Positions 7,443 to 30,885 of a stretch of 64,000 bases of DNA are shown here, one piece after another. Made by a program: the position numbers and the translations under genes. The DNA is from an uncultured Eubacteriales bacterium (lineage in GTDB: Bacteria; Bacillota; Clostridia; Oscillospirales; Oscillospiraceae): NCBI GenBank assembly GCA_942492735.1, contig OW818648.1:2245591-2309590 (forward strand), written 5' to 3'. Below the pieces are notes generated by a model that was not told the DNA's origin, searched no databases, and saw nothing but the letters and a program-made list of their open reading frames with translations. Position 1 is the stretch's first letter. Every line of letters begins with the position of its first letter.

Positions 7443-8534
7443 TTACTTTATAAGGTTTATCGCGTCGGCAATGATCTGGGCCAGAGCGGTCGCGCCGGCT
7501 TTGTTCGGATGAACACCGTCACTGTAAAAATAACTGCTTTTATTAATACTGGCGCTGTACCAATCCGCTATGATTGTGTTGGTGTAATCCAAGCATACCT
7601 TTGACAGTGTGGCGTTATTACCTGCGCACCATGATCTGGGTAACTGGACGTTGACAAATACGATTTTTCTTTCGCTGCCGATCAGCTCTATAACCTTGCG
7701 CATATCAGATTCTCTGATGGTGCCGTTCGCGCCAAGCTCTATGACAACAACAGGACCCAGCTTGCCTGCCTGAAGTAATTGCGGAACAATACTTTTGGCA
7801 TCGGAGAACTGTCTGGATACTTTCGAATCGGAATAGAGGTTTGGGAAATGCATTTTTAAGTACGGTGTTAAGCCGACACCGATGGAGTCGCCGATGAGTG
7901 TCACGTTCAAATCGCCCGGTGTGCTTGTAGATGGAACAGGTGTGTAGACTATTGAGGTGTTGATTTCAATAGTGTCGTTCTCCGGGACATACGTGACGCC
8001 AAAATTGACGGCTGCGGCAATGTCACGGAGCTTTATGTAGTTAGACTCACCAATAAGATAAGCCGTCAGGGTGAGCTTTGTACCATTGAGATAAACGACA
8101 CATGGCGTTGTTGTTGCCGCAACATTTTCTGTTAATCCGGACACAAGCATCTCGCCTCCGGACGCGGTGTACGCCGTATTGGAGATTAAGTCTACCTGTT
8201 TTGTCAGATCGTCATAAGTCACCTCAAACTGTTTATCGGTGCCGATGAGTGCGTACGCGATGTCACGCAGCTTGAAATAGTTGTTGCCGTTGATGCAGTA
8301 GGCTTCAAACTCTGTCTGGGTGCTGTTGATGAGCACCGCTGACTGCGTCGGTGCCGCATTCGTGGCCGCGGCTGATGCGGGCAGAACGAGAATTGATACC
8401 AGCAGGATTATAGCGATAAGTAGGTATATAAGCTGTTTAACGGTTTTCATTGGTTTGTCCTCCAATTGTGCTGTGTTTGGTATGGAACCCATCGTATGGC
8501 ACAGCATTTTTGGCATTTGAATTCCTTGAATCAT
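7443..8534 (-). CDS. Secreted SGNH/GDSL hydrolase with two copper-amine-oxidase-like N-terminal domains (putative cell-wall esterase or acetyltransferase)
   Basis: Signal peptide, then two NGNNYFKLRDIAYAL-type repeats, then an SGNH domain with GDS(I), GxNG/GANG and DGVHPN blocks. Its SGNH domain is clearly similar (estimated by eye 60-70% identical, not computed) to those of the next two genes. Confidence 0.7.
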   Translation of the reverse strand: MIQGIQMPKMLCHTMGSIPNTAQLEDKPMKTVKQLIYLLIAIILLVSILVLPASAAATNAAPTQSAVLINSTQTEFEAYCINGNNYFKLRDIAYALIGTDKQFEVTYDDLTKQVDLISNTAYTASGGEMLVSGLTENVAATTTPCVVYLNGTKLTLTAYLIGESNYIKLRDIAAAVNFGVTYVPENDTIEINTSIVYTPVPSTSTPGDLNVTLIGDSIGVGLTPYLKMHFPNLYSDSKVSRQFSDAKSIVPQLLQAGKLGPVVVIELGANGTIRESDMRKVIELIGSERKIVFVNVQLPRSWCAGNNATLSKVCLDYTNTIIADWYSASINKSSYFYSDGVHPNKAGATALAQIIADAINLIK

Positions 8535-8658
8535 ATGCTTGACTGCTATTATAACAGACTGTTCTCATCGAAATATCACGAATTATGCAGACGGTGCGGG
8601 ACGGTAAGCGCTCATCCGGTATTTATGGCGCAGCTGTCTGCACGTTTACAGTTGTGCT

Positions 8659-9717
8659 TTAATGACCGTTATGAATCGGCTGATACGGACTATACGGCTG
8701 TATTGCGACAACCGCATCGGCAATGGTCTTCGCGAGAACGGTACATCCGGTATTGTTCGGATGAAAACCGTCTTTATAAAAGTATTGGTCGTTTTCAGCG
8801 CTGGCGCTGTACCAGTCTGCGATGATCGTATTGGCGAATTCTGCAACGACCTTCGTAAACGTTTTGTTGTCACCCTCACACCACGATCTCGGTACCCGGC
8901 AATTGACAAAGACGAGCTTTCTATCTTTTCCGATGAGCTCAATGAGCGCGCGCACATCGGTTTCCTTCACTGTGCCATTCGTTCCGAGTCCGATAACAAC
9001 GGTCGAGCTCAGCTTTTCTTCCTGCAGTAATTTCTCAATGATACTCTTTGCCTGATAAAACTGTCTTGAGGCTTTCGCATCGATATACATATTGGGAAAG
9101 TACTTCTTCAGATACGGCGCGACGCCGGCCCCAACCGAATCTCCGATGAAGGTGACGCTGAGATCGCACGGAAACGTGATTTCTAACGGAACAGGTGTAT
9201 AGACTGTTGCGGTGTCGATTTCTATGATGCTACTCTCCTGTATATACCTGACGTCAAAGTTGATCGCGGCGGCAATATCGCGAAGCTTTATAAAGTTGGA
9301 TTCACAGATGATATATGCTGTCAGGCTGAGCTTTACCCCGTCGAGATAAATATTAGATGACGTCGCCGTCGCGGCGACGCTCTCGGCGAATTCGGATACC
9401 TTCATCTCCGTTCCGGCCGCGGTGTAGGCCGCGTTGGAGATTAAGTCGACCTGATTATTCAAATCGCTATACGACACCTCAAACTGCTTGGCTGTACCGC
9501 TGAGCGCATAAGCGATGTCACGCAGTTTGAAATAGTTGCTGCCGTTTATGGTGTAGGCTTCGAATTCCTGCTTCACTCCGTTGATGAATACCGGAGATGC
9601 TGTCGGTGTCGCCTGAACAGCCGCGGCCTCAGCCGACTGAACAACAACGGAAAACAGCAAGGCGATGACGGTAAACATACATAGGATATTTTTTATTCGT
9701 TTCACTATTAACCTCAA
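8659..9717 (-). CDS. Secreted SGNH/GDSL hydrolase paralogue (same architecture as 7443..8534)
   Basis: Signal peptide, two copper-amine-oxidase-like repeats, then an SGNH domain with FIGDSVGAG…DGFHPN. Confidence 0.7.
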   Translation of the reverse strand: MRLIVKRIKNILCMFTVIALLFSVVVQSAEAAAVQATPTASPVFINGVKQEFEAYTINGSNYFKLRDIAYALSGTAKQFEVSYSDLNNQVDLISNAAYTAAGTEMKVSEFAESVAATATSSNIYLDGVKLSLTAYIICESNFIKLRDIAAAINFDVRYIQESSIIEIDTATVYTPVPLEITFPCDLSVTFIGDSVGAGVAPYLKKYFPNMYIDAKASRQFYQAKSIIEKLLQEEKLSSTVVIGLGTNGTVKETDVRALIELIGKDRKLVFVNCRVPRSWCEGDNKTFTKVVAEFANTIIADWYSASAENDQYFYKDGFHPNNTGCTVLAKTIADAVVAIQPYSPYQPIHNGH

Positions 9718-9740
9718 AATTTACCTCATTTATCTGGCTT

Positions 9741-11768
9741 TCAGCGTATCGGCATATACGGCTTGTAAGGCTGTACTTTATATATCGCATCAGCAATAAT
9801 CTTCGCCAGGATGGGAGAACCGGTGCTGTTCGGATGAAAACCGTCTTTCCAAAAGTAATCGCTTCTGTCAAGACTGACATCATACCAGTTGGCGACTGTT
9901 GTATTGTCGTATTCGGCGGCAATTTTCGTCAGCGTACTGTTGACCGCATCACACCAGGATCTCGGCACCTGTGTGTTGACAAAGACGATCTTTCTGTCAC
10001 TGCCGATCAGTTCAATCAGCGCGCGCATATGCGCTTCGGATACCGTTCCGTTGGATCCGAGCTCAATAACAACGGTTGACCACAGTTTGTTTTGCGCTAT
10101 CAATTCACTGATAATATTTTTCGCTTGATAGAACTGTCTGCCAACTTTAGCGTACATGTACATATTGGGATAATACTCCTGCAAGCTCGGGGCGATGTCG
10201 ATCGCTATCGAGTCGCCGATGACTGTGATGCAGAGGTCGCTCGGCGTTATGACTGCTGGTGCGCTATCAGGTGAAGCATCGGAGGCCTCTGGCGATGGGC
10301 TTGCTGTGGGCGGCTCCGGACTATCTGTTGGGTTCGCCGGACTGCTCGATGGAGAAGCCGAGGATAACGATGTATCCGTCGACGGACTCGTTGTCGGCGA
10401 TGGGCTTATTGACGGCGGCGGACTTGTTGTCGGCGCCATGCTTATTAACGGCGGCGCTGAAGAGGCTTCCGCATTATTTTGAGGCGTAATAATCATCTGC
10501 GAGGGTAAAGCGCTAAGTTCGTCCAAGCCTGAATTCGGCACAGCCTGTGCATTGAGAAAACCGGCGCCTGATACCAGTACCAGCGTGATTACCAGCAGAG
10601 CGGCCGTTTTTTCCCACCAACGCGTATGCAGGCAGCTCGAACAAAAATCACGGAAAGAGCTCTTTTTGAAGGATTTGATGATCTGACTCTTGCGAATCGG
10701 CATTTCTATAAGGTAATAAGAGACCGTTGCCAGCAGAATAGTCGCGGCAACCTGACAGATGCTCAGTATCACATTCAGTTTATTTGATGGCATCATTGTA
10801 TTCGAAATGATAATCACGGGAAACTGCCATAAATAAACGCCGTAGGATATTTTGCCGATAAATCGCAGCGGCCTTAAGCCAAAGAATTTTCCGATGACCG
10901 TGGTGGGACTTACAACTGCTGCGATGAGCACGCAAGAAGCGATGGAGAAAACGAACATGCCGCCGCGGTAAAGAAAATCGTCATACTGCGTCATATAGTA
11001 ACACATAAATATGATGCCGAAAAGCGCAATGAAACCAGCGATACTCGATATGAGTCGCGTATTCCTTTTTTGCATCGCTTCCGTAATCTTTTTGCTCGGA
11101 AAGGCGAACGCCAGACATGCGCCGAGCAGCAGGGAGAAAACACGGGTATCCGTGCCATAATAGATGCGGCTTGGGTCGAATCCCGGCTGATAGAGCACCG
11201 CCATGAGTGCACCCGATATAACAGCGGCGACGGCAATAACCGTGATCTTAATCCAGTTCTTTTTTATGAACCGCTGTAACAAGAGCATCAAAAAAGGCCA
11301 AACGAGATAAAACTGCACCTCAACGGCAAGCGACCAGAAGTGATTTAGAAGAGAAGGTGTCGCAAAAGAGGTGAAGTACGGAATGTCGTTGAATATGTAC
11401 CACCAATTACTGGCGAAAAACATAGCCGGCAGAAACTCGGATTTCAAGTTCGCAAAGAGGTCGGGGCGAAAAACCGTGACATAAGCAACAAGGCATATCA
11501 GCAGAAAAAACACACTTGGCAGGAGTCTTTTCCCACGCCGGATAAAGAAACTTTTCAGATTGATTTTGTTGTCTTTTGCCCACTCAGTCTGCAGTATATC
11601 GGTGATCAGATATCCTGAAAGCACAAAAAACAGCGTCACGCCTAGAAAACCGCCGGGGACAAACGGCAAGCCCAAATGATACGCAATAACCGCAAATACA
11701 GCTAAAGCCCGGAGGCCGTCAAGCCCGGGCATGTAAGAATTTTTTTGAATCGTTATATCTGTCATCAA
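9741..11768 (-). CDS. oatA: OatA-like O-acetyltransferase: acyltransferase-3 membrane domain, Pro/Ser/Thr-rich linker, C-terminal SGNH domain
   Basis: About 10 transmembrane helices with an acyltransferase-3 pattern, a low-complexity PSPTTSPS linker, and a C-terminal SGNH domain (VIGDSIAID…KDGFHPN). This matches the peptidoglycan O-acetyltransferase OatA architecture. Confidence 0.75.
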   Translation of the reverse strand: MMTDITIQKNSYMPGLDGLRALAVFAVIAYHLGLPFVPGGFLGVTLFFVLSGYLITDILQTEWAKDNKINLKSFFIRRGKRLLPSVFFLLICLVAYVTVFRPDLFANLKSEFLPAMFFASNWWYIFNDIPYFTSFATPSLLNHFWSLAVEVQFYLVWPFLMLLLQRFIKKNWIKITVIAVAAVISGALMAVLYQPGFDPSRIYYGTDTRVFSLLLGACLAFAFPSKKITEAMQKRNTRLISSIAGFIALFGIIFMCYYMTQYDDFLYRGGMFVFSIASCVLIAAVVSPTTVIGKFFGLRPLRFIGKISYGVYLWQFPVIIISNTMMPSNKLNVILSICQVAATILLATVSYYLIEMPIRKSQIIKSFKKSSFRDFCSSCLHTRWWEKTAALLVITLVLVSGAGFLNAQAVPNSGLDELSALPSQMIITPQNNAEASSAPPLISMAPTTSPPPSISPSPTTSPSTDTSLSSASPSSSPANPTDSPEPPTASPSPEASDASPDSAPAVITPSDLCITVIGDSIAIDIAPSLQEYYPNMYMYAKVGRQFYQAKNIISELIAQNKLWSTVVIELGSNGTVSEAHMRALIELIGSDRKIVFVNTQVPRSWCDAVNSTLTKIAAEYDNTTVANWYDVSLDRSDYFWKDGFHPNSTGSPILAKIIADAIYKVQPYKPYMPIR

Positions 11769-18700: not shown

Positions 18701-21694
18701 ATCACCGAAGTCCAGATCGACGCTTGCGCCCGTTTCGCCGCTGACGGTGATTGTTTGAGAGGGCGTCTTTGTAACGCCGTCATTATTGAGGTTTCCAATA
18801 TCCGAACTCATAGTAAGCGTCGGCGCAATGGGGTCGGTACTGTCCTGAGTAATTGTAACGCTTGCAGGTGCGCTATCATTGCCAACAGCATCCGATGCTA
18901 TAACAACAAGCGTATTTAAAGCATTCTGATTCAGATTCACACTTATGGAATAGCTGCCCCCGGTAGCAGTTCCGGTTGCTGTTACATTGCCGCCGGTAAT
19001 AGTAATCGTCGCTCCAACGTCTGCCGTGCCGTTGATTATAATATTGTCTGCGTTGATAGTTTGATTTCCTGTTGTAATAATCGTTAGCGTCGGATTTATG
19101 TTGTCCACCGTCGCGTTGGTCGTATCTGCTGCTGTTCTTGTATTACCCGCATTGTCCCTTGCTGTCACAGCAACATTTATGTTCGTAGCGTCAACGGTTC
19201 CAGCTGTTATCGTATAGGTCGCGGTCCATGTTCCGCCAGAATTTGTCGCAGCAACGGCGGCTCCTCCGCCGAATGCGCTGAAATCGACGTTTACACCCGA
19301 TATCGTGTCAGCGTTGTTGTCGCCGCCTGCGGTGTTGTTCCACGTTGCCGTCACGGTGTCGCCTATTTTATACGCACCGCCCGTTCCGCTTGCTCCGCTG
19401 ATAGAAATGCGCGCGTCTGTCACCGTGGGTGCAACGTTGTCCACTGTCGCATTCGTCGTATCGGCTCTTGTTGTGCTGTTGTCCGCATTGTCTTTGGCAG
19501 TTGCCGATACATTTTTATTCGTGCCGTCGATAGCTCCCGCGACTATTGTATATGTAGCAGTCCATGTCCCAGCTGAATTTGTCGCAGCAACGGCGGCTCC
19601 TCCGCCGAATGCGCTAAAGTCAACGGTTACCACCGAAATCGTATCACTGTTATTATCGCCGCCCGCGGTATTGTTCCACGTTGCCGTAACGGTGTCGCCG
19701 ATTTTATACGCTCCGCCCGTTCCGCTTGCTCCGCTGATTGAAATGTTACCGTCCGTCACCGTGGGCGCTACGCTGTCCACTGCCGCGTTCGTCGTATCGG
19801 CTGTTGTTGTGCTGTTGCCCGCATTGTCAGTTGCGGTTACCGAGACATTTCTATTCGTGGTGTCGAGGGCTCCCGCGACTATCGTATATGTAGCAGTCCA
19901 TGTCCCGGCTGAATTTGTCGCAACTACTGTGGCTCCTCCGCCGAACTGACTGAAATCAACGGTTACGCCTGATATCGTATCGCTGTTATTATCGCCGCCT
20001 GCGGTATTGTTCCACGTCGCCGTAACGGTGTCGCCGATTTTATGCGCTCCGCCCGTTCCGGTTCCGCCGCTGATGGAAATGCGCGCGGCTGTCACCGTCG
20101 GAGCGACGTTGTCCAACGTCGCATTCGTTGTATCGGCTGTTGTGGCAGCATTGCCCGCGTTGTCAGTTGCGGTTACCGAGACATTTCTATTCGTGGTGTC
20201 GAGGACTCCCGCGACTATCGTATATGTAGCGGTCCATGTCCCTGCTGAATTTGACGCAGCTACGGCGGCTCCTCCGCCGAACTGACTGAAGTTAACGGTT
20301 ACGCCGGAAATCGTATCGCTATTATTATCGCCGCCTGCGGTGTTGTTCCACGTTGCCGTCACCGTATCGCCGATTTTATACGCTCCGCCAGTGCCGCTTG
20401 CTCCGCTGATAGAAATGCGCGCGTCTGTCACCGTCGGCGCAACGTTGTCCACTGTCGCATTCGTCGTGTCGGCTTTTGTAGTGCTGGTCCCCGCATTGTC
20501 CGTGGCAGTTACCGATACATTTTTATTCGTGCCGTCGATATCCCCCGCAACTATCGGATATGTAGCAGTCCATGTCTCGGAATTATTTGTTGCAACTACA
20601 GAAGCACCGCCCCCGAATTGACTGAAATCTACAGTCACGCCTGTAATTGTAGCGCTATTATTGTCTCCAGCTGCGGTGTTGTTCCACGTTGCCGTCACCG
20701 TGTCGCCTATTTTAAACGCTCCGCCAGTGCCGCTTGCTCCGGCGATGGAAATACGCGCGTCTGTGACCGTCGGCGCGGCATTGCTGACTGTAATTCCGTT
20801 GCCGGTCAAGTCGGCAATAATGAGCGAGGCAGTGGTATTCGTATCCCAATCTTCCGCCGCGGCGAGATTATATGTAGTTCCGCCCGTTGAGCTTGTGCCG
20901 TTTTTATTCATTATCTGATTGACGGCGGCCTTGTCGAACGCGTTGAGCGTCACCGAAAAGTTGGTTGCACTGGTGGCAAACACATTACCAGAGGTAAGCG
21001 TGCACGTACTTCCACCCTCTCCGGTCAGCGTCAGTTTGTTGACAGCAATAGTGTCGCCAGTTGTCATGCCGCTGCCTGTTACTGCTAAAACGCCAGTGTT
21101 TGCATCATATGTTGCGCTCGTGATAAAGGGGGCGGCTTTTACGTCATCGATCTCAAGATCTTGAAAAACGACATACGAATCAGAAGTAAAGGTGACACTG
21201 GTAACATCGTTAAACGACGTCAGACCGGACTTCGTGATTAAGGTTTCATTCGCCGCGGTATATGGGATGCTGGTAACCATTCCGTTATAGTATACGGATA
21301 TCGTATAGCTGGGTTCTGCTGCATAATGATTTCCAGCAAACTTAAATCCGGTCAGATCAAAGGTATGCCCCGCTGCAACAGACACGGTAAAATCGACCCC
21401 GTTGTTTGCGTTGCGTGTTGAGCTAGCGTATATACCGGTTAAGGTAGTATTCGCATCGATGCTAAACCAGTTAGGAGTATATGCTGTTGAACCGTTAGCA
21501 AATGTAAATGTCTTGCCTTCGATGGGTCGTACAAAGCTGCCGCTTGCGGCATTAATGTCTTCGGGCGAATCATCTATAAATGTCACTGTCGTGACAATCG
21601 CCCTTGCCGGCAGCGTCAGCGCGGGCAAAAGGCAAATCACCAGCGCCAGAGCCATAAAAGTCGAGATTAGCTTTCGTGCAATTTTGGTTTTCAT
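15746..21694 (-). CDS. Giant S-layer-homology-anchored surface protein or adhesin (1983 aa): signal peptide, six tandem Ig-like repeats, cadherin-like and Ig-like domains, three C-terminal SLH domains
   Basis: The in-frame ATG at 21694 has a perfect AAGGAG ribosome-binding site and gives MKTKIARKL… plus a hydrophobic signal. There are six ~111-aa repeats (VAPTVTDARISISGASGTGGAYKIGDTVTATWNN…) and VNDTPTV/VNEAP cadherin-like linkers. Three SLH motifs follow (FTDV…NWA…, FDDV…, YTDG…). The longer track ORF that extends to 21916 overlaps the PadR gene. Confidence 0.85.
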   Translation of the reverse strand: MKTKIARKLISTFMALALVICLLPALTLPARAIVTTVTFIDDSPEDINAASGSFVRPIEGKTFTFANGSTAYTPNWFSIDANTTLTGIYASSTRNANNGVDFTVSVAAGHTFDLTGFKFAGNHYAAEPSYTISVYYNGMVTSIPYTAANETLITKSGLTSFNDVTSVTFTSDSYVVFQDLEIDDVKAAPFITSATYDANTGVLAVTGSGMTTGDTIAVNKLTLTGEGGSTCTLTSGNVFATSATNFSVTLNAFDKAAVNQIMNKNGTSSTGGTTYNLAAAEDWDTNTTASLIIADLTGNGITVSNAAPTVTDARISIAGASGTGGAFKIGDTVTATWNNTAAGDNNSATITGVTVDFSQFGGGASVVATNNSETWTATYPIVAGDIDGTNKNVSVTATDNAGTSTTKADTTNATVDNVAPTVTDARISISGASGTGGAYKIGDTVTATWNNTAGGDNNSDTISGVTVNFSQFGGGAAVAASNSAGTWTATYTIVAGVLDTTNRNVSVTATDNAGNAATTADTTNATLDNVAPTVTAARISISGGTGTGGAHKIGDTVTATWNNTAGGDNNSDTISGVTVDFSQFGGGATVVATNSAGTWTATYTIVAGALDTTNRNVSVTATDNAGNSTTTADTTNAAVDSVAPTVTDGNISISGASGTGGAYKIGDTVTATWNNTAGGDNNSDTISVVTVDFSAFGGGAAVAATNSAGTWTATYTIVAGAIDGTNKNVSATAKDNADNSTTRADTTNATVDNVAPTVTDARISISGASGTGGAYKIGDTVTATWNNTAGGDNNADTISGVNVDFSAFGGGAAVAATNSGGTWTATYTITAGTVDATNINVAVTARDNAGNTRTAADTTNATVDNINPTLTIITTGNQTINADNIIINGTADVGATITITGGNVTATGTATGGSYSISVNLNQNALNTLVVIASDAVGNDSAPASVTITQDSTDPIAPTLTMSSDIGNLNNDGVTKTPSQTITVSGETGASVDLDFGDGTAHATGTIAAGTFTAPAHTYAAGRYTISATLTDTAVNVSAAGTKLVVIDTTAPSVTTPSTLTISTTAATNGATVGALTATDATTISGFTDSLRWQLIGGADMSKFTISGANLLINNAGGLSAGSYAVLVYVDDTAGNSNALLITVKVVSGPTVNPASHSYNDTAANDTFPSVMGTIDATANSGSITGYGINGGTLGDTVIDSVTYNVSKASIYGTLYVKSNGSYVYVPTSNAILNEQTAAVPDIFTIEATDSAGTTGNTLTITINGVNDTPTVTAHTFTTNEDTVLNDSLTSYASDAEGNTLSYVLWTGPSHGSLSFNANGTFTYIATADYSGNDGFTWKAYDGTVNSAAITATITITAVNEAPSITSGDPASFAENGTGTVYTATRTDPDAGDTVTWSLDGADKTLFSIDSDGKVTFNAVPNYEDKKDIGADNVYNILVVAKDGGNLTASKDLAITVTNVNEAPAISTSVAISVIEGSTAAFTPAASDPEGSAITWSISGGDDAAKFSIVAGVVTFGTAPSYGTPTDTNTNNSYVLEITAYDGTMTAAKTVTVTVTPQVVYDSTPSGSAVVEVNGVRQDAGTASTTTSGGQTTTTITVDDTKLDKLLESSGEKPTVTLPGIMGSDVVVGELNGQTIKNMETKEATLEIKTETVTYTLPASQINIDAVSALLGSQVELKDINVSVKIAEPPADTVKIIEDTANQGGYQIVVKPVEFEITCTSGDKTISISKFNGYVERTIAIPDGVDPSKITTGIVLNADGTFRHVPTQIVVIDGKYYAKINSLTNSTYSVIWNPVTFTDVTDNWAKTAINDMGSRMVVAGIGDGIFEPDRSITRAEFAAIIVRALGLAKGTAESSFDDVTLTDWFNGDVDTAAAYALISGYDSTSYGPNDLITREQAMTIIANAMKLAGLRISLTDSEVSALLLKYTDGADVSSYARQSAAACLEAGITTGTSATTLSPKDYVTRAEVAVMVQHLLQKSGLI
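19100..20790. repeat. Five to six tandem copies of a ~333-bp coding repeat inside the adhesin gene (near-identical at the DNA level)
   Basis: Near-identical strings recur at a 333-bp period (for example ccgcccgttccgcttgctccgctgat, gtccactgtcgcattcgtcgta). The antisense ORFs 19305..19949, 20007..20285 and 20340..20621 are artefacts of this periodicity. Confidence 0.8.
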
Positions 21695-24895: not shown

Positions 24896-25072
24896 ACAGA
24901 AAAGTACTGCAATGAGGAGTATAGCGTGACAAATGCTTTTCACGCGCGGGAGAAATCAATTTGCCCGCCAAAAAAGCGGCGGCTATTTTCGAAGCGGATT
25001 GTATCCACTTGAAAACGCATCGGTTTTTACTATTTATTTGTGCTGCCGCTTTGCGGCGGAATGGAGATTTAT
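24896..25072 (+). promoter_or_regulatory. Conserved ~175-nt leader element, copy A. It contains three GC hairpins, a TTGAAA-N16-TATTTA promoter-like pair, and the ribosome-binding site and start of the downstream gene.
   Basis: It is clearly similar (identity estimated by eye at about 80%, not computed) to 28965..29137: shared blocks include atagcgtga.aaatgcttttc.cgc.cgg.agaaa, ccgccaaaaa.cgg.ggcgg, aagcggattgtatcc.cttgaaaac and ttatttgtgc.gccgctt.gcggcggaatgg.g. Confidence 0.6.
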
Positions 25073-25810
25073 ATGAATAAATTCACGGGGCTTGTACGGC
25101 GCTGCGTCGAGGATTACAAAATGATTGAAGACGGCGAAACGATTGCCGTTGGCGTTTCCGGCGGTAAGGATTCGGTGTCGCTGCTTTGCGCATTAGCGAA
25201 TCTCCGGCAGTATTATCCGAAAAAGTTCGAGCTTCAGGCCATAACCATATCAATGGGTTATGAGGAGATGGATTTTACGCCTGTACAGGAGTTGTGTGAG
25301 AGGCTGAATGTGCCGCTGACACTCCACGAGACGGGACTTGGTAAGCTCATCTTTGAAGATCGAAAGGAAAAAAATCCATGCGCGCTGTGCGCGAAAATGC
25401 GGCGCGGCGTGCTCAACGACCTTGCTCTCGGTATGGGGATCAAAAAGCTCGCCCTGGCGCATCATTATGACGATGCTGTTGAGACGTTTTTTTTGTCTCT
25501 TTTCTATGAGGGACGTATCAGCTGCTTCCAGCCGGTGACGTATATGAGCAGGGCAGGTGTGACGCAGATCCGACCGCTGCTGTATGTCGGCGAGGCGACT
25601 GTACGAAGCCTTGTTGCCCGGCATCATCTGCCGATTGTCGAAAATGTCTGTCCGATGAACGGTAAATCCAAGCGCGAGGAAGTCAAGACGCTTATAAAAA
25701 CCCTCAGCGCGCAATACCCCGATCTGAAAAGCAAAATATTCGGCGCGATGCAGCGTCTGCCGCTCGAAGGCTGGGAACCCGAGGAATACGCCAGGCGGCC
25801 GCTGCCGTAA
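25073..25810 (+). CDS. PP-loop ATP pyrophosphatase of the TtcA/TilS superfamily (tRNA thiolation-type enzyme)
   Basis: SGGKDS PP-loop motif and CALC/CxxC cysteine pairs typical of TtcA. The start at 25073 has a GGAG ribosome-binding site. Confidence 0.7.
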   Translation: MNKFTGLVRRCVEDYKMIEDGETIAVGVSGGKDSVSLLCALANLRQYYPKKFELQAITISMGYEEMDFTPVQELCERLNVPLTLHETGLGKLIFEDRKEKNPCALCAKMRRGVLNDLALGMGIKKLALAHHYDDAVETFFLSLFYEGRISCFQPVTYMSRAGVTQIRPLLYVGEATVRSLVARHHLPIVENVCPMNGKSKREEVKTLIKTLSAQYPDLKSKIFGAMQRLPLEGWEPEEYARRPLP

Positions 25811-25834
25811 AAAATGAATGCACTTGTTGCTAAG

Positions 25835-25936
25835 TGTCATTCTGAGGAGCAAAGCGACGAAGAATCTCCAGGTGATCGTATATCGGCGAAACGGCCGAGG
25901 ATCACCTGGAGATTCTTCACTTCGTTCAGAATGACA
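25835..25936. repeat. ~100-bp palindromic intergenic element (family 2, tgtcattctgagg…cagaatgaca)
   Basis: The arms tgtcattctgaggagcaaagcgacgaagaatctccaggtgatc and gatcacctggagattcttcacttcgttcagaatgaca are inverted copies. It lies between the convergent ttcA-like and rsgI genes. Confidence 0.7.
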
Positions 25937-25969
25937 AATCAGTTTTGCAACCGGTTTTCACACAAATTA

Positions 25970-28033
25970 TTACGGCGCTGTTAACTGCACTGTGTTGGAG
26001 ACGAATTTGCCGTTTCCGAATACGTAGGTGATGGCGAAGTAATACGTTTTTCCGGATTCCAGACCTGCCTCTGCCGGAACGGTCGACCACCCCGATGAAC
26101 CGAAATCGGACAGTACGCAGATGTATCCGTCGTCGGGGTAAATCGGATTGGGGTTTGTCTCGGAAGCGACGACCTTGTAATAATGAAAGTCTTCATACGA
26201 CATTCCGTTATAAATGACGGTGCTGCCCGGTAGAGCTGACCAGTTAAACGACAGCATGCCGCCGTTGGATAGAACCGACAGCGCCGGAGATGAGAAGACT
26301 GGAGCCGTCGGGGCAGTGCAGCCCGGAATTGTGGCGGTCACTGTATTTGTGACGTATTTGCCATTACCAAAGACATATGTGACAGCGAAATAATACGTTT
26401 TCCCAGCTTCCAAGGTCGGAGACTTATTATAATTTCCCGCAGATGGATCGACGGACCAGCTGGACGAGCCAAGGTCGGAAGCGTAATACAGGTAACCATT
26501 ATCGGGATAGACGGGTGTTGAGTCCGTGAGCGAGGCGACGATCTTATAGTAGTTAAAGTCTGTATACGTCTTGCCGTTATATGTCACGGTTCGGTCGGGT
26601 ATGGATGTCCAGCTGAAATTCAGGGTATTGCCTGACGTTGAAACATTCAGCTGGGGAGCAGCCGCGGCCGGCGCCGTGCTCGGTGATGCCTCATTGTATA
26701 AAGGAACCGTCGTACTCACGGTATTTGTTGTGAATTTCCCGTTCTCAAACACGTATGTGATGGCGAAATAGTACTTAACGCCGGGCTCCAGCGTCGGCGA
26801 CTGGTTGTAATCGGTTCCGGACGGATCTACTGTCCAGCTTGACGTGCTGTATTTGGAAACGGCCTGCAGATAGCCGTTATCTGGATAGATGGGGGTCGGG
26901 TCTGTTTCTGACGCAACGACCTTGTAGTATGAGAAATTCTTATACGTTTTGCCGTTGAATGTAACGGAAGTACCGCTTAAAGGCGTCCATATAAACTTAA
27001 TCTTACCGTTTAAGACTGTCGCCGTTAAACCGGGGGAGAAACTACCGGATGGTGAAGGCGATGGCGAGGGTGACGGTGAGGGCGATGGAGATGGTGACGG
27101 TGACGGTGATGGTGACGGTGACACGTGGACCTCGGGCGTGGTGTTCGAAGGGGTGGCGCTGGGCGGAACCGTTTCAGAGGGGGACGGTGTTGTATCTGAC
27201 GGTTTTACCGACGGCGTTGCGTTTGTTGATGGAGTTGCTTCAGCTTGCGCCGCTTCCTGCAGGAGAGGCTTCGTTTGCTCATCGAGGCTGAGTTTGCTGA
27301 AAATCTCACTGATGGTGCTGTCCTTAATCTCCTGCAAGCTCATGGCGAAACCATAATCCTCAGCAAATTTGTGCAGGAGCAGCCTTCCGATAGAAATGTT
27401 GCTTGCTTTCGCTTCATCAATAAAGCGTGAATCATCGATATAGACCGTGACGATTTCTGCCGCCTCGTTTTTTTCTGCAGACTTCAGGATTTCCCGAAGC
27501 TGTTCTTCAGCTGTTTGGTCGGTTTCGGTATTATTCGGAGCAGCCGAAATGAATAGAATGGAGCTCGCCCCTAAGAAACCGTTCGCTTTAGCAAATTCGA
27601 CAATCTTATTAATGCCGTCGTTGATTGGCTTCGTTTTCAGGTCGAGCTGGTCAAAAATCATCTGCCCTGCGGCGTTTGCGAAAACAATATCAATGATCTT
27701 GTTTTCCTTGTTGATGCTCAGTTCGATACTGGGGTTGATATCAATTGAGATGACTGCCGCGCACGTTGCGTCGAACGACCCTTTCTTGTCAAGACCGAAT
27801 ATCCCAAAAATGACACCTGCGGCGACGAGGATAATAAGGAGTGCCGCTGCAAGGGCGCGAAAATCGCTCAGACGGAGCCGACGCATAGGCGCTGAAATGT
27901 CCTTATTTGAAAATGTGACCTGCTGGCCGAGCATATATTCGTTTTTTGTTTTAATAAGGACCATATCGCAGGTTTTGGTGAAAACGTACGTTTTGCTTTT
28001 TGAAATATCCATGATCGTACCGGTATGAATCAT
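25970..28033 (-). CDS. rsgI: RsgI-like anti-sigma-I factor: RsgI_N cytoplasmic domain, one transmembrane helix, (PS)n linker, three FN3-like extracellular repeats
   Basis: The N-terminus (MIHTGTIMDISKSKTYVFTKTCDMVLIKTKNEYMLGQQVTF) fits the RsgI_N pattern. It overlaps the upstream sigma gene by 4 nt (ATGA). A SPSPSPSPSPSPSPSPSPS linker is followed by three ~110-aa repeats (…TVTYNGKTY.DF.YYK(I/V)VAS.TD.TP(I/V)YPDNGY…YYFA(I/V)TYVF.NGK). Confidence 0.7.
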   Translation of the reverse strand: MIHTGTIMDISKSKTYVFTKTCDMVLIKTKNEYMLGQQVTFSNKDISAPMRRLRLSDFRALAAALLIILVAAGVIFGIFGLDKKGSFDATCAAVISIDINPSIELSINKENKIIDIVFANAAGQMIFDQLDLKTKPINDGINKIVEFAKANGFLGASSILFISAAPNNTETDQTAEEQLREILKSAEKNEAAEIVTVYIDDSRFIDEAKASNISIGRLLLHKFAEDYGFAMSLQEIKDSTISEIFSKLSLDEQTKPLLQEAAQAEATPSTNATPSVKPSDTTPSPSETVPPSATPSNTTPEVHVSPSPSPSPSPSPSPSPSPSPSPSPSGSFSPGLTATVLNGKIKFIWTPLSGTSVTFNGKTYKNFSYYKVVASETDPTPIYPDNGYLQAVSKYSTSSWTVDPSGTDYNQSPTLEPGVKYYFAITYVFENGKFTTNTVSTTVPLYNEASPSTAPAAAAPQLNVSTSGNTLNFSWTSIPDRTVTYNGKTYTDFNYYKIVASLTDSTPVYPDNGYLYYASDLGSSSWSVDPSAGNYNKSPTLEAGKTYYFAVTYVFGNGKYVTNTVTATIPGCTAPTAPVFSSPALSVLSNGGMLSFNWSALPGSTVIYNGMSYEDFHYYKVVASETNPNPIYPDDGYICVLSDFGSSGWSTVPAEAGLESGKTYYFAITYVFGNGKFVSNTVQLTAP

Positions 28034-28773
28034 TGCGCATTCGCCCCCTTTATGTACGATTCGATATACCCTTTTAAGATTTCCATGTCGCTTTTGAGAA
28101 TCAGATAAAGTGCGATGATGTACTTTCTGTTCTTTTCGACTGTTTTTCGGCTCAGGCTGAAGCTCGATAGGATCCCTGTTATTGGGAGTCGGCCGTCTTC
28201 ACTGAGTCTCGCGGAGAGCTTTTTATCCTCAAAAAGCTTTTTGGCAATGGCTGCGCACATCGCCCGGGTATCGGTGTGCTTCGGCGCGGATAGAACAAGC
28301 TCGTCAAAAGAGATGCTGTATCCTTGAAGAGAATTCTTGAACGATAATATTTCGTCCTGAATTTCAAATCGTTCTGTGAGGAGGAGCGGGGGATGAAAAC
28401 CGGCTGGCTCATAATCCTCCTCGCGATCATCTAAGAGGGAGGAGAACGGGTATTCCACGCCGAATCGCTTGTTTCTCCTGAAGTAGTCTATGACCCGTCT
28501 GTTGATGACAAGTCCGGCAAACCCAAGAAAATTCGGGTTCTTGCTGCTGTCAAAGACGTCAATCGCCTCATTGAAGGCTTCAAGCGCAACGCTGAATTCG
28601 TCGGTTGAATCTGCTTTTCGTCCCGTCATCCGCGATACAATCGACCGTATGTATTCCCAGTATGTCTTAATCAGATATTCTCTGATCTCGGTTTCACCGT
28701 CTCTCAGGCGATCAATCAGCTCTTCCGGCTCGAGTGAAAGACATTCGCTCTTAGTAGTCTGCAACATTCTCAC
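28030..28773 (-). CDS. sigI: RNA polymerase sigma-I factor (SigI-type sigma-70 family)
   Basis: …EYLIKTYWEYIRSIVSRMTGRK…EFSVALEAFNEAIDVFD…FLGFAGLVINRRVIDYFRRNK matches the SigI region 2 and region 4 pattern. It is immediately upstream of, and coupled to, the RsgI-like gene. Confidence 0.8.
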   Translation of the reverse strand: MRMLQTTKSECLSLEPEELIDRLRDGETEIREYLIKTYWEYIRSIVSRMTGRKADSTDEFSVALEAFNEAIDVFDSSKNPNFLGFAGLVINRRVIDYFRRNKRFGVEYPFSSLLDDREEDYEPAGFHPPLLLTERFEIQDEILSFKNSLQGYSISFDELVLSAPKHTDTRAMCAAIAKKLFEDKKLSARLSEDGRLPITGILSSFSLSRKTVEKNRKYIIALYLILKSDMEILKGYIESYIKGANAQ

Positions 28774-28964
28774 CGCCTATAAAATATAAAACGTTTTATT
28801 TCAGGCCATATTATATTATTCGCACGATTCGACATTTTTTGTAGGGTATCCAGTAAAATAAATTGTAATTTAGTAAATAAACGGAAACTGGATCATATTT
28901 CCGAATGAGACCGTCCATCAAAGAGCAAGGAATATTATGAATGTTAAGCGGAATGTTATTAAGG

Positions 28965-29137
28965 AAAACGATGTTTATAGGAGAATAGCGTGAAAAATGC
29001 TTTTCCCGCCCGGAAGAAACCGATTTGGCCGCCAAAAACGGTGGCGGTCATTTTCAAAGCGGATTGTATCCGCTTGAAAACACATCGATTTTTCCTAATT
29101 ATTTGTGCCGCCGCTTAGCGGCGGAATGGGGGTTATT
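28965..29137 (+). promoter_or_regulatory. Conserved ~175-nt leader element, copy B (homologue of 24896..25072), directly upstream of ku
   Basis: See copy A. It ends at GGGGGTTATT immediately before the ku ATG. Confidence 0.6.
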
Positions 29138-29947
29138 ATGGCAGTCCAACACAGATCCGTTATTTCATTCGGCCTTGTGGCGATTCCTATTGCGATGTAT
29201 ACGGCGACACAGGACAATGATATTCATTTAAATCAGCTTCACAAGGATGACAATGAGCGTATCCGTTACAAAAAGACGTGTGCCCACTGCGGCGAGGAGC
29301 TGACGTCGGGCGATATCGTCAAGGGTTACGAATACGACAAAGGCCGGTATGTGGTGATTACCGACGACGAGATTGAAAAAATAAAGACCGAAAAAGAGAA
29401 GGCGATTCAAATTCTTCATTTCTCGAAACTCGATGAAATTTCGCCGGTTTATTATGACAAGACATATATGGCGATTCCAGAGCCCGGCGGCGAAAGAGCT
29501 TTCGAGCTTTTGAGAGCAGCCCTGATGTCCGAGCAGAAGGTGGCCATCGGCAAAACCGTCATTGGAACGAAAGATACTCTCATGGCGATCATTCCAAGAG
29601 ACGACGGGATTTTGATTACAACACTATTTTTTAGGGATGAAGTCAAAGACCTGCCAAAATCATATACAAAAACTGAGTCTCAAAAGGCCGAGCTTGAAAT
29701 GGCGCGGATGCTGATAGGCACGATGGATACACCGTTCAATCCGGAGGAATATCGCGACGAATACCAGTCAAAGCTGCGCGATTTGATTGAAACGAAGATA
29801 GCGGGCAGGGAAGTTCTCACAGCTCATACGGAGAGCGCAGGGAACGTCATCAATCTGATGGATGCCTTAAAGGCCAGTGTCAAACAGGCAGCGAAGCAGC
29901 CTGACGATTCAAATAAACAGCCTGAAAAGCAAAAGGTCATGGCATGA
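29138..29947 (+). CDS. ku: Ku protein, the DNA-end-binding component of non-homologous end joining
   Basis: …ISFGLVAIPIAMYTAT…IHLNQLHKDDNERIRYKKTCAHCGEEL…KGYEYDKGRYVV… is the Ku core. The start at 29138 has a GGGGG ribosome-binding site. Confidence 0.85.
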   Translation: MAVQHRSVISFGLVAIPIAMYTATQDNDIHLNQLHKDDNERIRYKKTCAHCGEELTSGDIVKGYEYDKGRYVVITDDEIEKIKTEKEKAIQILHFSKLDEISPVYYDKTYMAIPEPGGERAFELLRAALMSEQKVAIGKTVIGTKDTLMAIIPRDDGILITTLFFRDEVKDLPKSYTKTESQKAELEMARMLIGTMDTPFNPEEYRDEYQSKLRDLIETKIAGREVLTAHTESAGNVINLMDALKASVKQAAKQPDDSNKQPEKQKVMA

Positions 29948-30885
29948 CGGATATTTTTGGAAAAAAAGAAATTAAGCCGATGCTCATCGGCGCGACGGGA
30001 GCACCGTTTGACAGCAGCGACTATATCTTCGAGCTGAAGCTTGACGGAGAGCGGTGTGTTGCTTACCTCGACCCCGAATCCGGCACCGATCTCAGAAATA
30101 AGCGCAATATGAAAATGCTGCCCAAGGTCCCGGAGCTGTCCGATATCCACAGACAGGTCTCGGTGCGCTGCATATTGGACGGAGAACTGATTATTACCGT
30201 CGACGGCAAGCCCGATTTTTTTGAGATTCAAAGACGTTCGCTCACGACAAACAACTTCAGAATCAAGCTTCATGGCAGCCGATATCCAGCCACCTTTGTC
30301 GCGTATGACATTCTTTTTGTTGATAAAACGGAGGTCACGTCGCTGCCTCTCATAACGCGAAAAAAACAGCTTGAAGCCATTGTCACGGAAAATGGCAGAC
30401 TTGCCGTTTCACGATACATTGAAGGACAAGGCGCCGCGTTGTACAAGCTGACTGAAGAGCAGGGTCTTGAGGGGATCGTCGCTAAACACCGCAACAGCCT
30501 ATATACATTCGACAAACGGACAAAGGATTGGATAAAGATAAAAAACCTGCTGGACGACGATTTTGTCATCGCAGGCTTTATTCGGAAGGAGAAGGGTGTA
30601 ACGAGCGCCGTACTGGGACAGTATGACGGTGCAACGCTGCTTTATAAGGGACATGTAACGCTCGGTGTTTCATCAGATGACTTCAAACTGATGGAAAAAG
30701 CAGCTAAGCGCGGGACAACGCCGTTTGAGGAGATGCCTCCGGGCAATGAGGGAGCAACCTGGATAGAACCCAAACTTGTCTGCACCGTTAAATATATGAT
30801 GAAAACAGCAACAGGCTCCATGCGTCAGCCCGTCTTTAAGGGCATCCGGTATGACAAGGAACCGTGGGAGTGTACGGCTTCATAA
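29944..30885 (+). CDS. ligD: ATP-dependent DNA ligase (LigD ligase domain only; no polymerase or phosphoesterase modules)
   Basis: The FELKLDGER motif carries the KxDG adenylation lysine, and OB-fold motifs lie downstream. It overlaps ku by 4 nt. The 313-aa size equals a ligase domain alone. Confidence 0.8.
   Translation: MTDIFGKKEIKPMLIGATGAPFDSSDYIFELKLDGERCVAYLDPESGTDLRNKRNMKMLPKVPELSDIHRQVSVRCILDGELIITVDGKPDFFEIQRRSLTTNNFRIKLHGSRYPATFVAYDILFVDKTEVTSLPLITRKKQLEAIVTENGRLAVSRYIEGQGAALYKLTEEQGLEGIVAKHRNSLYTFDKRTKDWIKIKNLLDDDFVIAGFIRKEKGVTSAVLGQYDGATLLYKGHVTLGVSSDDFKLMEKAAKRGTTPFEEMPPGNEGATWIEPKLVCTVKYMMKTATGSMRQPVFKGIRYDKEPWECTAS

Follow-up and report, generated by a model that had tools for sequence, protein, structure and literature searches.

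Two copies of a repeat of about 146 bp in a 64,000-nucleotide stretch of an uncultured Eubacteriales bacterium (GCA_942492735.1, contig OW818648.1, positions 2,245,591 to 2,309,590; here called the window) are very probably two independent insertions of a nonautonomous derivative of the IS110 family of insertion sequences (ISs), similar to a miniature inverted-repeat transposable element (MITE). Each copy is located between the Shine-Dalgarno (SD) sequence and the ATG start codon of a host gene, namely, a PP-loop (TtcA-like) gene for copy A and ku for copy B. The element is present at both loci in the window and absent from both in relatives, and each insertion has an SD sequence on one side and a spacer with the ATG on the other. 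Sequence comparison further indicated homology of both termini to the ends of full-length ISs and, in the full-length relatives, covariation between a putative guide segment and the host flank.

Copy A occupies positions 24922 to 25066 (145 bp) and copy B positions 28986 to 29131 (146 bp), with both on the minus strand in IS orientation and in the same orientation to their host genes; copy A contains no transposase gene, its right-end (RE) terminus is at 24922, and its left-end (LE) terminus is at 25066. Alignment within these boundaries, which are uncertain by about 4 nt, gave 85.6% identity (125 of 146 columns). The original prediction had described two collinear copies of about 175 bp with about 80% identity, and alignment over those wider coordinates (24896 to 25072 versus 28965 to 29137) indeed gave 80.4% (144 of 179 columns), with the real unit being shorter. 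The flanks of the copies were at background similarity, with 50% identity over 40 nt on the 5′ side and 41% over 40 nt past the ATG. Positions 24896 to 24921, formerly taken as the beginning of copy A, are native leader of the PP-loop gene, lie outside the repeat, and are homologous to leaders of relatives without the element. The copies do form the immediate 5′ leader of both genes, including the ribosome-binding site, as had been proposed, but they do not extend through the start codon, since the element ends 6 nt short of the ATG at 25073 (PP-loop gene) and at 29138 (ku). A 25-mer core occurred exactly twice in the window and in none of 100 shuffled sequences. A copy number of two in the 64 kb was returned by a repeat finder, by a hidden Markov model (HMM) of the 3′ module, and by a covariance model (CM R1) of the whole unit, which scored copies A and B at 136 and 152 bits, respectively; neither the HMM nor CM R1 detected any additional copy there, whether complete or partial.

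Syntenic loci of relatives were collected through homologues of Ku and of the PP-loop protein. PP-loop leaders of five relatives (L126, L127, L128, L129, and L002) lacked about 146 nt exactly between GAGGWGT and TTTxA plus the start codon, and the PP-loop proteins of L126, L127, L128, and L129 were 83 to 90% identical to that of the window (90% in L126 and L127). The unit of about 145 nt was likewise missing from the ku leaders of L001, L002, L004, L005, and L129. The first four of these encode Ku proteins 76 to 82% identical to that of the window and share with it an upstream GGAATA-N-GGAATGTTA motif, as well as the ribosome-binding site and ATG. The element is not a conserved leader at either locus. 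These relatives also bear on a duplication scar from insertion of the 3.9-kb ttcA-like/rsgI/sigI block, an explanation that had been raised for copies that are direct repeats bracketing this block. Relatives without the element retain the order rplM, PP-loop gene, rsgI, sigI, (radical SAM gene), and ku; the block is therefore ancestral, and the scar explanation fails. Copy A, moreover, lies upstream of the PP-loop ATG and not at a block boundary, and this origin was considered refuted, with a probability close to nil.

The search for further copies and for the genes downstream of them, which had been suggested as a check, proved to be the decisive test. An exact scan for the 19-nt 3′ block GCCGCTTNGCGGCGGAATGG identified at least 120 metagenome loci. 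Among the 120 matches listed, 61 had the block followed by AG, 4 to 10 nt, and an ATG with an open reading frame (ORF); about half of the listed matches represent chance or coding-region occurrences. A module consisting of a hairpin, GGAATGGAG, about 6 nt, and an ATG was found before at least 51 distinct downstream ORFs, 41 of which are at least 60 amino acids (aa) long or run off the contig. The 10 downstream genes that were scanned were mutually unrelated and were annotated as encoding peptide deformylase (def), SecA, a class I Met-type aminoacyl-tRNA synthetase (metG), DapA, rubrerythrin, another PP-loop protein, Ham1, a CN-hydrolase, an ABC ATPase, and a class II aminoacyl-tRNA synthetase. 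BLAST matches of the window element to these loci were mostly 40 to 52 nt in length, with 84 to 93% identity. Three loci (L035, L054, and L119) contained full-length elements of the window type, with 70 to 75% identity and with the same SD and ATG context where flanks were present. In exact-pattern scans, the central palindrome AAGCGGATTGTATCCNCTTGAAA had no match in genome or metagenome contigs, and the 5′ block ATAGCGTGANAAATGCTTTTC had none in genome contigs.

In one large group of these loci, the conserved sequence extended about 290 nt upstream of the module, to the start of a gene in reverse complement. The gene at the inner edge of this noncoding left end encodes a 424-aa product, which begins MKVTYQTCCGVDVHK and contains the Pfam domains DEDD_Tnp_IS110 (PF01548) and Transposase_20 (PF02371). 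The same product matched NCBIfam model NF033542 (IS110 family RNA-guided transposase) with 236 bits, compared to a cutoff of 140. Using tblastn, this transposase or relatives with as little as 48% identity were found contiguous to the module and on the opposite strand in 14 full- or near-full-length loci (L011, L014, L019, L046, L048, L052, L055, L057, L058, L112, L040, L067, L051, and L080), and fragments were found in four more. The full-length IS is about 1.65 kb, and its transposase is encoded on the strand opposite to the host gene. The hairpin with GGAATGGAG thus forms the outermost part of the noncoding left end of an IS110-family element. A tblastn search of the 64-kb window with the L048 transposase detected no IS110 transposase (best E value, 1.2). 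The DEDD transposase that characterizes an autonomous IS is thus present in the related full-length loci and absent from the 146-bp window element.

The opposite end of the full-length IS reads ...CTTTCACACTA/T and is followed by the complement of the host SD sequence (TCCTCC, TTCTCC, or GTTCCTCC). In host-gene orientation, the junctions consist of the host GGAG or GGAGG and 2 to 5 nt, then the element from TAGTGTGAAAG to GGAATGGAG, and then 6 nt and the ATG. An identical layout was found in copies of about 1.65 kb (L014, L048, L052, L057, and L058) and in 248-bp copies without transposase (L015, L062, and L093). In the window, the junctions of copy A are AGGAG-TA|TAGCGTGACAAATG ... GGAATGGAG|ATTTAT-ATG, with TAGCGTGAC as the 5′ terminus, and those of copy B are AGGAG-AA|TAGCGTGAAAAATG ... 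GGAATGGGG|GTTATT-ATG, with TAGCGTGAA as the 5′ terminus. The 5′ end of the window copies (TAGCGTGAmAAA) matches TAGTGTGAAAG, the RE terminus shared by the full-length IS and the 248-bp elements. This terminus, TTTCAC(A/G)CT(A/T) in IS orientation, is retained even at about 50% transposase identity, where it reads TTTCACACTT in host-gene orientation. The 3′ end of the window copies is 84 to 93% identical to the outer left end of the IS over about 45 to 50 nt. In copy A, the RE-type terminus spans positions 24922 to 24945 of the plus strand (TAGCGTGAC..., with a subterminal hairpin GCGTGA...TCACGC), and the LE terminus spans 25043 to 25066 (a 7-bp GC hairpin, CTGCCGC TTT GCGGCGG, then AATGGAG). 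The corresponding LE terminus of copy B spans 29108 to 29131 (hairpin CCGCCGC TTA GCGGCGG, then AATGGGG). An inverted-repeat search of the element found only internal hairpins and subterminal matches of 6 to 7 nt, with no terminal inverted repeats. GGAG occurs on both sides of the element, with the left one being the host SD sequence at variable distance, and there is no fixed-length target duplication. Without terminal inverted repeats, the element is therefore termed only MITE-like, as classical MITEs have both such repeats and a target site duplication.

Modules occurred in size classes of about 60, 80, 146, and 248 bp alongside the IS of about 1.65 kb. Three modules preceded three successive genes in L074 (6031 to 9103), and two modules, nested or in tandem, were located 80 nt apart in L076 (1 to 130, minus strand). 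In L057, the full-length IS precedes another PP-loop/TtcA-like gene in an unrelated metagenome contig; the gene behind copy A belongs to this family too, probably by coincidence.

An internal 10-mer of the noncoding end of the IS, at a fixed distance of 127 to 129 nt from the hairpin, was found to equal the flank, i.e., the last G of GGAG together with the spacer and the ATG. Guide-like variants that track the flank included GATTAATATG in L011, L055, and L058; GATTTTTATG in L014 and L052; and GATTAAAATG in L057. Six copies matched their flank at all 10 positions of the 10-mer, and two (L019 and L048) matched at 9 of 10. A 10-mer that covaries with the flank resembles the left target guide of a bridge RNA (PMC11208160) and is regarded as a candidate guide. 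Two further segments of the noncoding left end (e.g., 9053 to 9297 in L048) may be donor guides or stem partners, namely, UACACUAAG, similar to the right-end terminus CACACUA, and GCACAAAUAAGUGG, similar to the left-end sequence GCACAAAUAGUAAUG. A search of the small elements, including the window copies, for an internal target guide returned only chance-level matches, and the left end of the full-length IS had no match in Rfam.

According to these sequences, the full-length IS inserts in one direction between the SD sequence and the start codon, with its transposase antisense to the host gene. The RE terminus (TAGYGTGAAA... in host-gene orientation) lands 2 to 5 nt past the host SD sequence, and the LE terminus, consisting of the 7-bp GC hairpin and AATGGAG, lands 6 nt before the host ATG, so that a new SD sequence is placed at the correct distance. 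Target choice is most likely RNA guided, through the 10-nt segment of the noncoding end that is identical to the flanking G, spacer, and ATG. The window copies, which keep both termini and contain neither transposase nor guide, would have been mobilized in trans by a full-length copy located outside the window. Mini-IS constructs with only the ends move when transposase and noncoding region are supplied in trans (PMC11187229), and a 22-bp donor with bridge RNA in trans suffices for recombination (PMC11208160); mobilization in trans is therefore plausible. With GGAG closing the left end at a distance of 6 nt from the host ATG, the interrupted gene can still be translated from its start, and the presence of the module before def, secA, and aminoacyl-tRNA synthetase genes suggests that this happens. 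The GGAG of copy A (25063 to 25066) is an element-borne putative replacement SD sequence, the GGGG of copy B (29128 to 29131) occupies the same position, and they would now serve as the SD sequences of the PP-loop gene and of ku, respectively.

Folding of five window-type copies predicted a common outer 12-bp stem that encloses a conserved GC hairpin and a nonconserved central hairpin, followed by the terminal 7-bp hairpin. In copy A, the central structured part extends from 24948 to 25030 on the plus strand, with the outer stem GGGAGAAATCAAT/ATCGGTTTTTAC around terminator-like hairpin 1 (24963 to 24983) and hairpin 2 (24992 to 25010). The original prediction was borne out with respect to the hairpins of both copies, to an alternative pairing between hairpins 1 and 3, which forms part of the minimum-free-energy structure predicted for copy A, and to a promoter-like TTGAAA-N16-TAwTTA pair, which is present at 25009 to 25036 and at 29074 to 29101. 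The pair in copy A (TTGAAA-N16-TATTTA) faces the PP-loop gene and was read from the sequence, as a consensus scan did not call it. The pair in copy B (29074 to 29102, read as TTGAAA-N17-AATTAT, or as N16-TAATTA at 29074 to 29101) faces ku and matched the consensus scan at 9 of 12 positions. The T-tract of hairpin 1 is not conserved in L035, L054, and L119, and the gut lineage has TACTAT with a weak −35 element in place of the TTGAAA-N16-TAnTTA of the window. Through terminator-like hairpin 1 and the outward-facing promoter-like pair, the element may uncouple both genes from their old promoters.

The same features were weighed as a shared cis-regulatory RNA leader, whether riboswitch-like, protein binding, or acting by upstream-ORF (uORF) attenuation, that would coregulate the PP-loop gene and ku-ligD. 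Copy B folded well beyond shuffled sequences (z scores of −3.4 and −3.6 for the plus and minus strands, respectively), a three-way consensus fold with G-U pairs on the strand of the mRNA is common to the five copies, and an alternative pairing is possible between the two GC hairpins. The plus-strand fold of copy A, however, was no better than those of shuffled sequences (z score, −0.84), the central hairpin is not conserved, and compensatory changes were found in 2 of 28 predicted pairs, only in the terminal hairpin and only in L035 (one or two pairs, depending on the count). These predicted folds provide weak evidence at best for selected RNA structure in the element. No Rfam model matched at the gathering threshold in the whole window or at an E value of ≤10 between 24500 and 29500, apart from a spurious microRNA (miRNA) model on an unrelated inverted repeat. 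A GTG at the 5′ end of the element, 6 nt after the host SD sequence (24926 in copy A), opens a uORF that crosses hairpin 1 and that has 28 codons in copy A (24926 to 25012) and 42 codons in copy B (28990 to 29118); an indel between the copies disrupts its frame. A leader peptide was rejected, as the frames diverge after this indel and substitutions are mostly nonsynonymous. The corresponding position of the full-length IS is occupied by GTG-TGA, a start codon followed directly by a stop codon. The regulatory leader that had been proposed is also missing from five orthologous leaders of relatives at each locus, and in other organisms the unit is located ahead of unrelated housekeeping genes, with at least 51 unrelated downstream genes overall; this explanation was left unsupported and was considered very unlikely.

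Several observations weigh against the interpretation as an IS110 derivative. Pattern scans of genome contigs did not find a full-length IS with termini of the window subtype (TAGCGTGA... and ...GCGGCGGAATGGAG), and none was found from the source genome, of which the window was covered. The central part of the window element (about 80 nt) has no detectable similarity to the sampled noncoding ends of full-length ISs. The exact crossover or core position is fixed neither by the junctions nor by the noncoding-end alignment, and the distance from the host SD sequence to the RE varies from 2 to 5 nt. The spacer and ATG flanks of copies A and B differ from each other at several positions, and the selection of metagenome loci by an exact 19-nt pattern partly imposes the apparent conservation of the 3′ hairpin. 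Furthermore, several of the G-U pairs in the consensus fold fall on the host-gene strand; the structure could thus have been selected in the mRNA, beyond what a purely selfish relic would need.

The unrelated central part would also fit an arrangement in which the unit of about 146 bp is an independent small repeat, similar to repetitive extragenic palindromic (REP) sequences, that serves as a homing target for IS110-family elements, with the full-length IS nested inside it. Many IS110-family members are described as targeting repeated extragenic sequences, such as ISPpu9 in REP sequences (PMC12288879), and the hairpin-SD modules occur with many different upstream contexts. In full-length copies, however, TAGTGTGAAAG abuts the host SD side and GGAATGGAG abuts the spacer and ATG, with no repeat halves outside the IS; the guide-like 10-mer matches and covaries with host sequence outside the module, past its GGAG end, rather than with the module interior; and the mobility of the repeat itself would be left unexplained. 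A repeat of this kind was considered unlikely. Propagation of a promoter or 5′ untranslated region module by nontranspositional duplication or gene conversion, with an incidental likeness to IS ends, was also considered, given that just two copies, 4 kb apart and in the same orientation, occur in the 64 kb. It was judged highly improbable, as both ends coincide with IS110-family ends in other organisms, both insertions have the same context (SD sequence on one side, spacer and ATG on the other) as the IS copies, and the flanks have no homology that could support recombination.

Insertion between the SD sequence and the ATG and MITE-like derivatives are already known in the IS110 family; the distinctive feature of the IS110 derivative described here is the left end that terminates in GGAG. 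The target motif of IS900 (CATGNNNNNNTCTCCTT) is the complement of SD-N6-CATG, and this IS has been reported to target “translation initiation signals” (PMC8141618). IS900, IS901, and IS902 of Mycobacterium share with the present family a DEDD transposase, the lack of terminal inverted repeats, and orientation-specific insertion that separates the ribosome-binding site from the start codon and leaves the transposase antisense to the host gene. The IS900-type target is CATGN6TCTCCTT (PMC8141618), and its equivalent here is CAT-N6-CTCC. Unlike the IS900 type, the present family comes from Clostridia and gut metagenomes, its left end finishes with a hairpin and a replacement SD sequence, the window copies are 146 bp long and transposase-less, and there is no long antisense ORF similar to hed, only a short nonconserved uORF or, in full-length copies, GTG-TGA.

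With IS621 and other IS110-family recombinases that use a bridge RNA (seekRNA), the full-length relatives share the match to the RNA-guided transposase model and a long noncoding left end upstream, as well as an internal segment that is identical to the left target flank and changes with it, as expected for a left target guide (PMC11208160). In contrast to these recombinases, the present family naturally targets translation initiation regions and not REP sequences, and a guide is absent from the window element. MITEPpu9 is a MITE-like IS110-family derivative of ISPpu9 (PMC12288879). It shares with the present element the form of a small nonautonomous unit bounded by IS110-like ends, next to or away from a transposase gene (PMC12288879). 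MITEPpu9 carries the small-RNA gene ssr9 and is tied to the REP-targeting ISPpu9 in Pseudomonas, whereas the present element is 60 to 250 bp depending on subtype, is located between the SD sequence and the ATG, and has no demonstrated RNA product. A literature search found the terminal sequence of the present element in no paper.

The gene order in the window is rpsI and rplM (minus strand), the PP-loop/TtcA-like gene, rsgI and sigI (minus strand), ku, an ATP-dependent ligase gene, and a gene for a Band_7 protein, and the identities previously proposed for the PP-loop/TtcA-like protein, RsgI, the SigI-type sigma factor, Ku, and the ligase were confirmed. The PP-loop gene (25073 to 25810, plus strand) matched Pfam PF01171 and scored below the cutoff of the NCBIfam TtcA model. 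The ku gene downstream of copy B (29138 to 29947, plus strand; Pfam Ku) is overlapped by the ATP-dependent ligase gene (29944 to 30885, plus strand; Pfam DNA_ligase_A_M and DNA_ligase_A_C). A ligase gene that overlaps the ku stop codon was found in the window only; in relatives (L001, L002, and L129), an Fe-ADH or Band_7 gene follows ku. A B12-binding radical SAM gene lies between sigI and ku in L001, L002, and L128 and is not present in the window or in L005.

The native SD sequence of the PP-loop gene (AGGAG, 24915 to 24919, plus strand) aligned with GAGGTG of L126, L128, and L002, which lack the element, and that of ku (AGGAG, 28979 to 28983, plus strand) was located by alignment with four relatives. 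Both are now separated from their start codons by the element copies. The native spacer and ATG of the PP-loop gene (ATTTAT-ATG, 25067 to 25075, plus strand) constitute the left-target flank in IS orientation, and relatives have TTTTA, TTTCA, or TTACA followed by the start codon at this position. For ku, the native spacer and ATG are GTTATT-ATG (29132 to 29140, plus strand), with ACTTAT, AATTTT, ATCAAT, or ATCATT followed by ATG GCT GTT in relatives. The true starts were fixed by homologues; Ku relatives begin with MAV(A/Q)H(K/R)S, and most PP-loop homologues are 245 aa long, placing the PP-loop start at the ATG at 25073. The first 11 codons of the two ORFs, previously read as translated repeat, are an extension by the ORF caller, and homologues start at the downstream ATG. 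The proteins in the public record (P0121, 249 aa; P0001, 273 aa) begin 4 codons too early, at the ATG in GGAATGG of the element, and both of these starts appear to be misannotated because of the element.

A promoter-like motif that is ancestral to ku (GGAATA-N15-GGAATGTTA, 28929 to 28958, plus strand) is retained upstream of copy B. The motif, with 15 to 18 nt between its two parts, also occurs upstream of ku in L001, L002, L004, L005, and L129, and in the window the element has shifted it to about 180 nt from the ATG. We infer that it resembles a forespore sigma-G-type promoter (−35, GnATA; −10, AATGTTA). Elsewhere in the window, a near-perfect inverted repeat of about 110 nt with stems of about 45 nt (25829 to 25939) lies between the convergent PP-loop gene and rsgI, and matched nothing in the databases except spurious miRNA models; it may function as a bidirectional terminator or represent a further small repeat. 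Five 336-bp tandem repeats with 71 to 78% identity (19083 to 20726) and a second set of repeats at a spacing of about 1.25 kb (7461 to 9914) probably represent repeated protein domains or paralogous genes.

A broader possibility, which is put forward tentatively and regarded as doubtful, is that the family constitutes an RNA-guided, portable translation-initiation cassette that homes to SD-ATG spacers of arbitrary genes and installs a standard hairpin with an SD sequence, possibly together with an outward promoter behind a terminator-like hairpin, in which case the structure on the mRNA strand would be functional. Near-identical upstream regions before nonhomologous genes were reportedly described as “putative mobile promoters” by Matus-Garcia, Nijveen, and van Passel in 2012. 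Compared to those, the present family has a concrete vehicle (IS110-family ends) and a concrete site (the SD-ATG spacer), and any promoter activity is putative. If the cassette interpretation were true, the ku-ligase nonhomologous end-joining operon would have been rewired away from an ancestral sporulation-type promoter, and the tRNA-thiolation-type gene would have been rewired as well.

The results replace the tempting interpretation of a new riboswitch with a concrete explanation by a mobile element, and they account for gene starts that were placed within the element, too far upstream by 4 codons in the NCBI record and by 11 codons in the ORF track. For this bacterium, the question is raised of whether ku-ligD and the PP-loop gene are driven by element-borne signals. 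For bridge-recombinase biology, the loci offer candidate natural pairs of guide and target (spacer plus ATG) and natural minimal donors. More generally, they document a natural lineage of the IS110 family that is widespread among Clostridia and in gut metagenomes, that targets translation initiation regions and has a terminal SD sequence of its own, and that has yielded nonautonomous derivatives of about 60 to about 250 bp.

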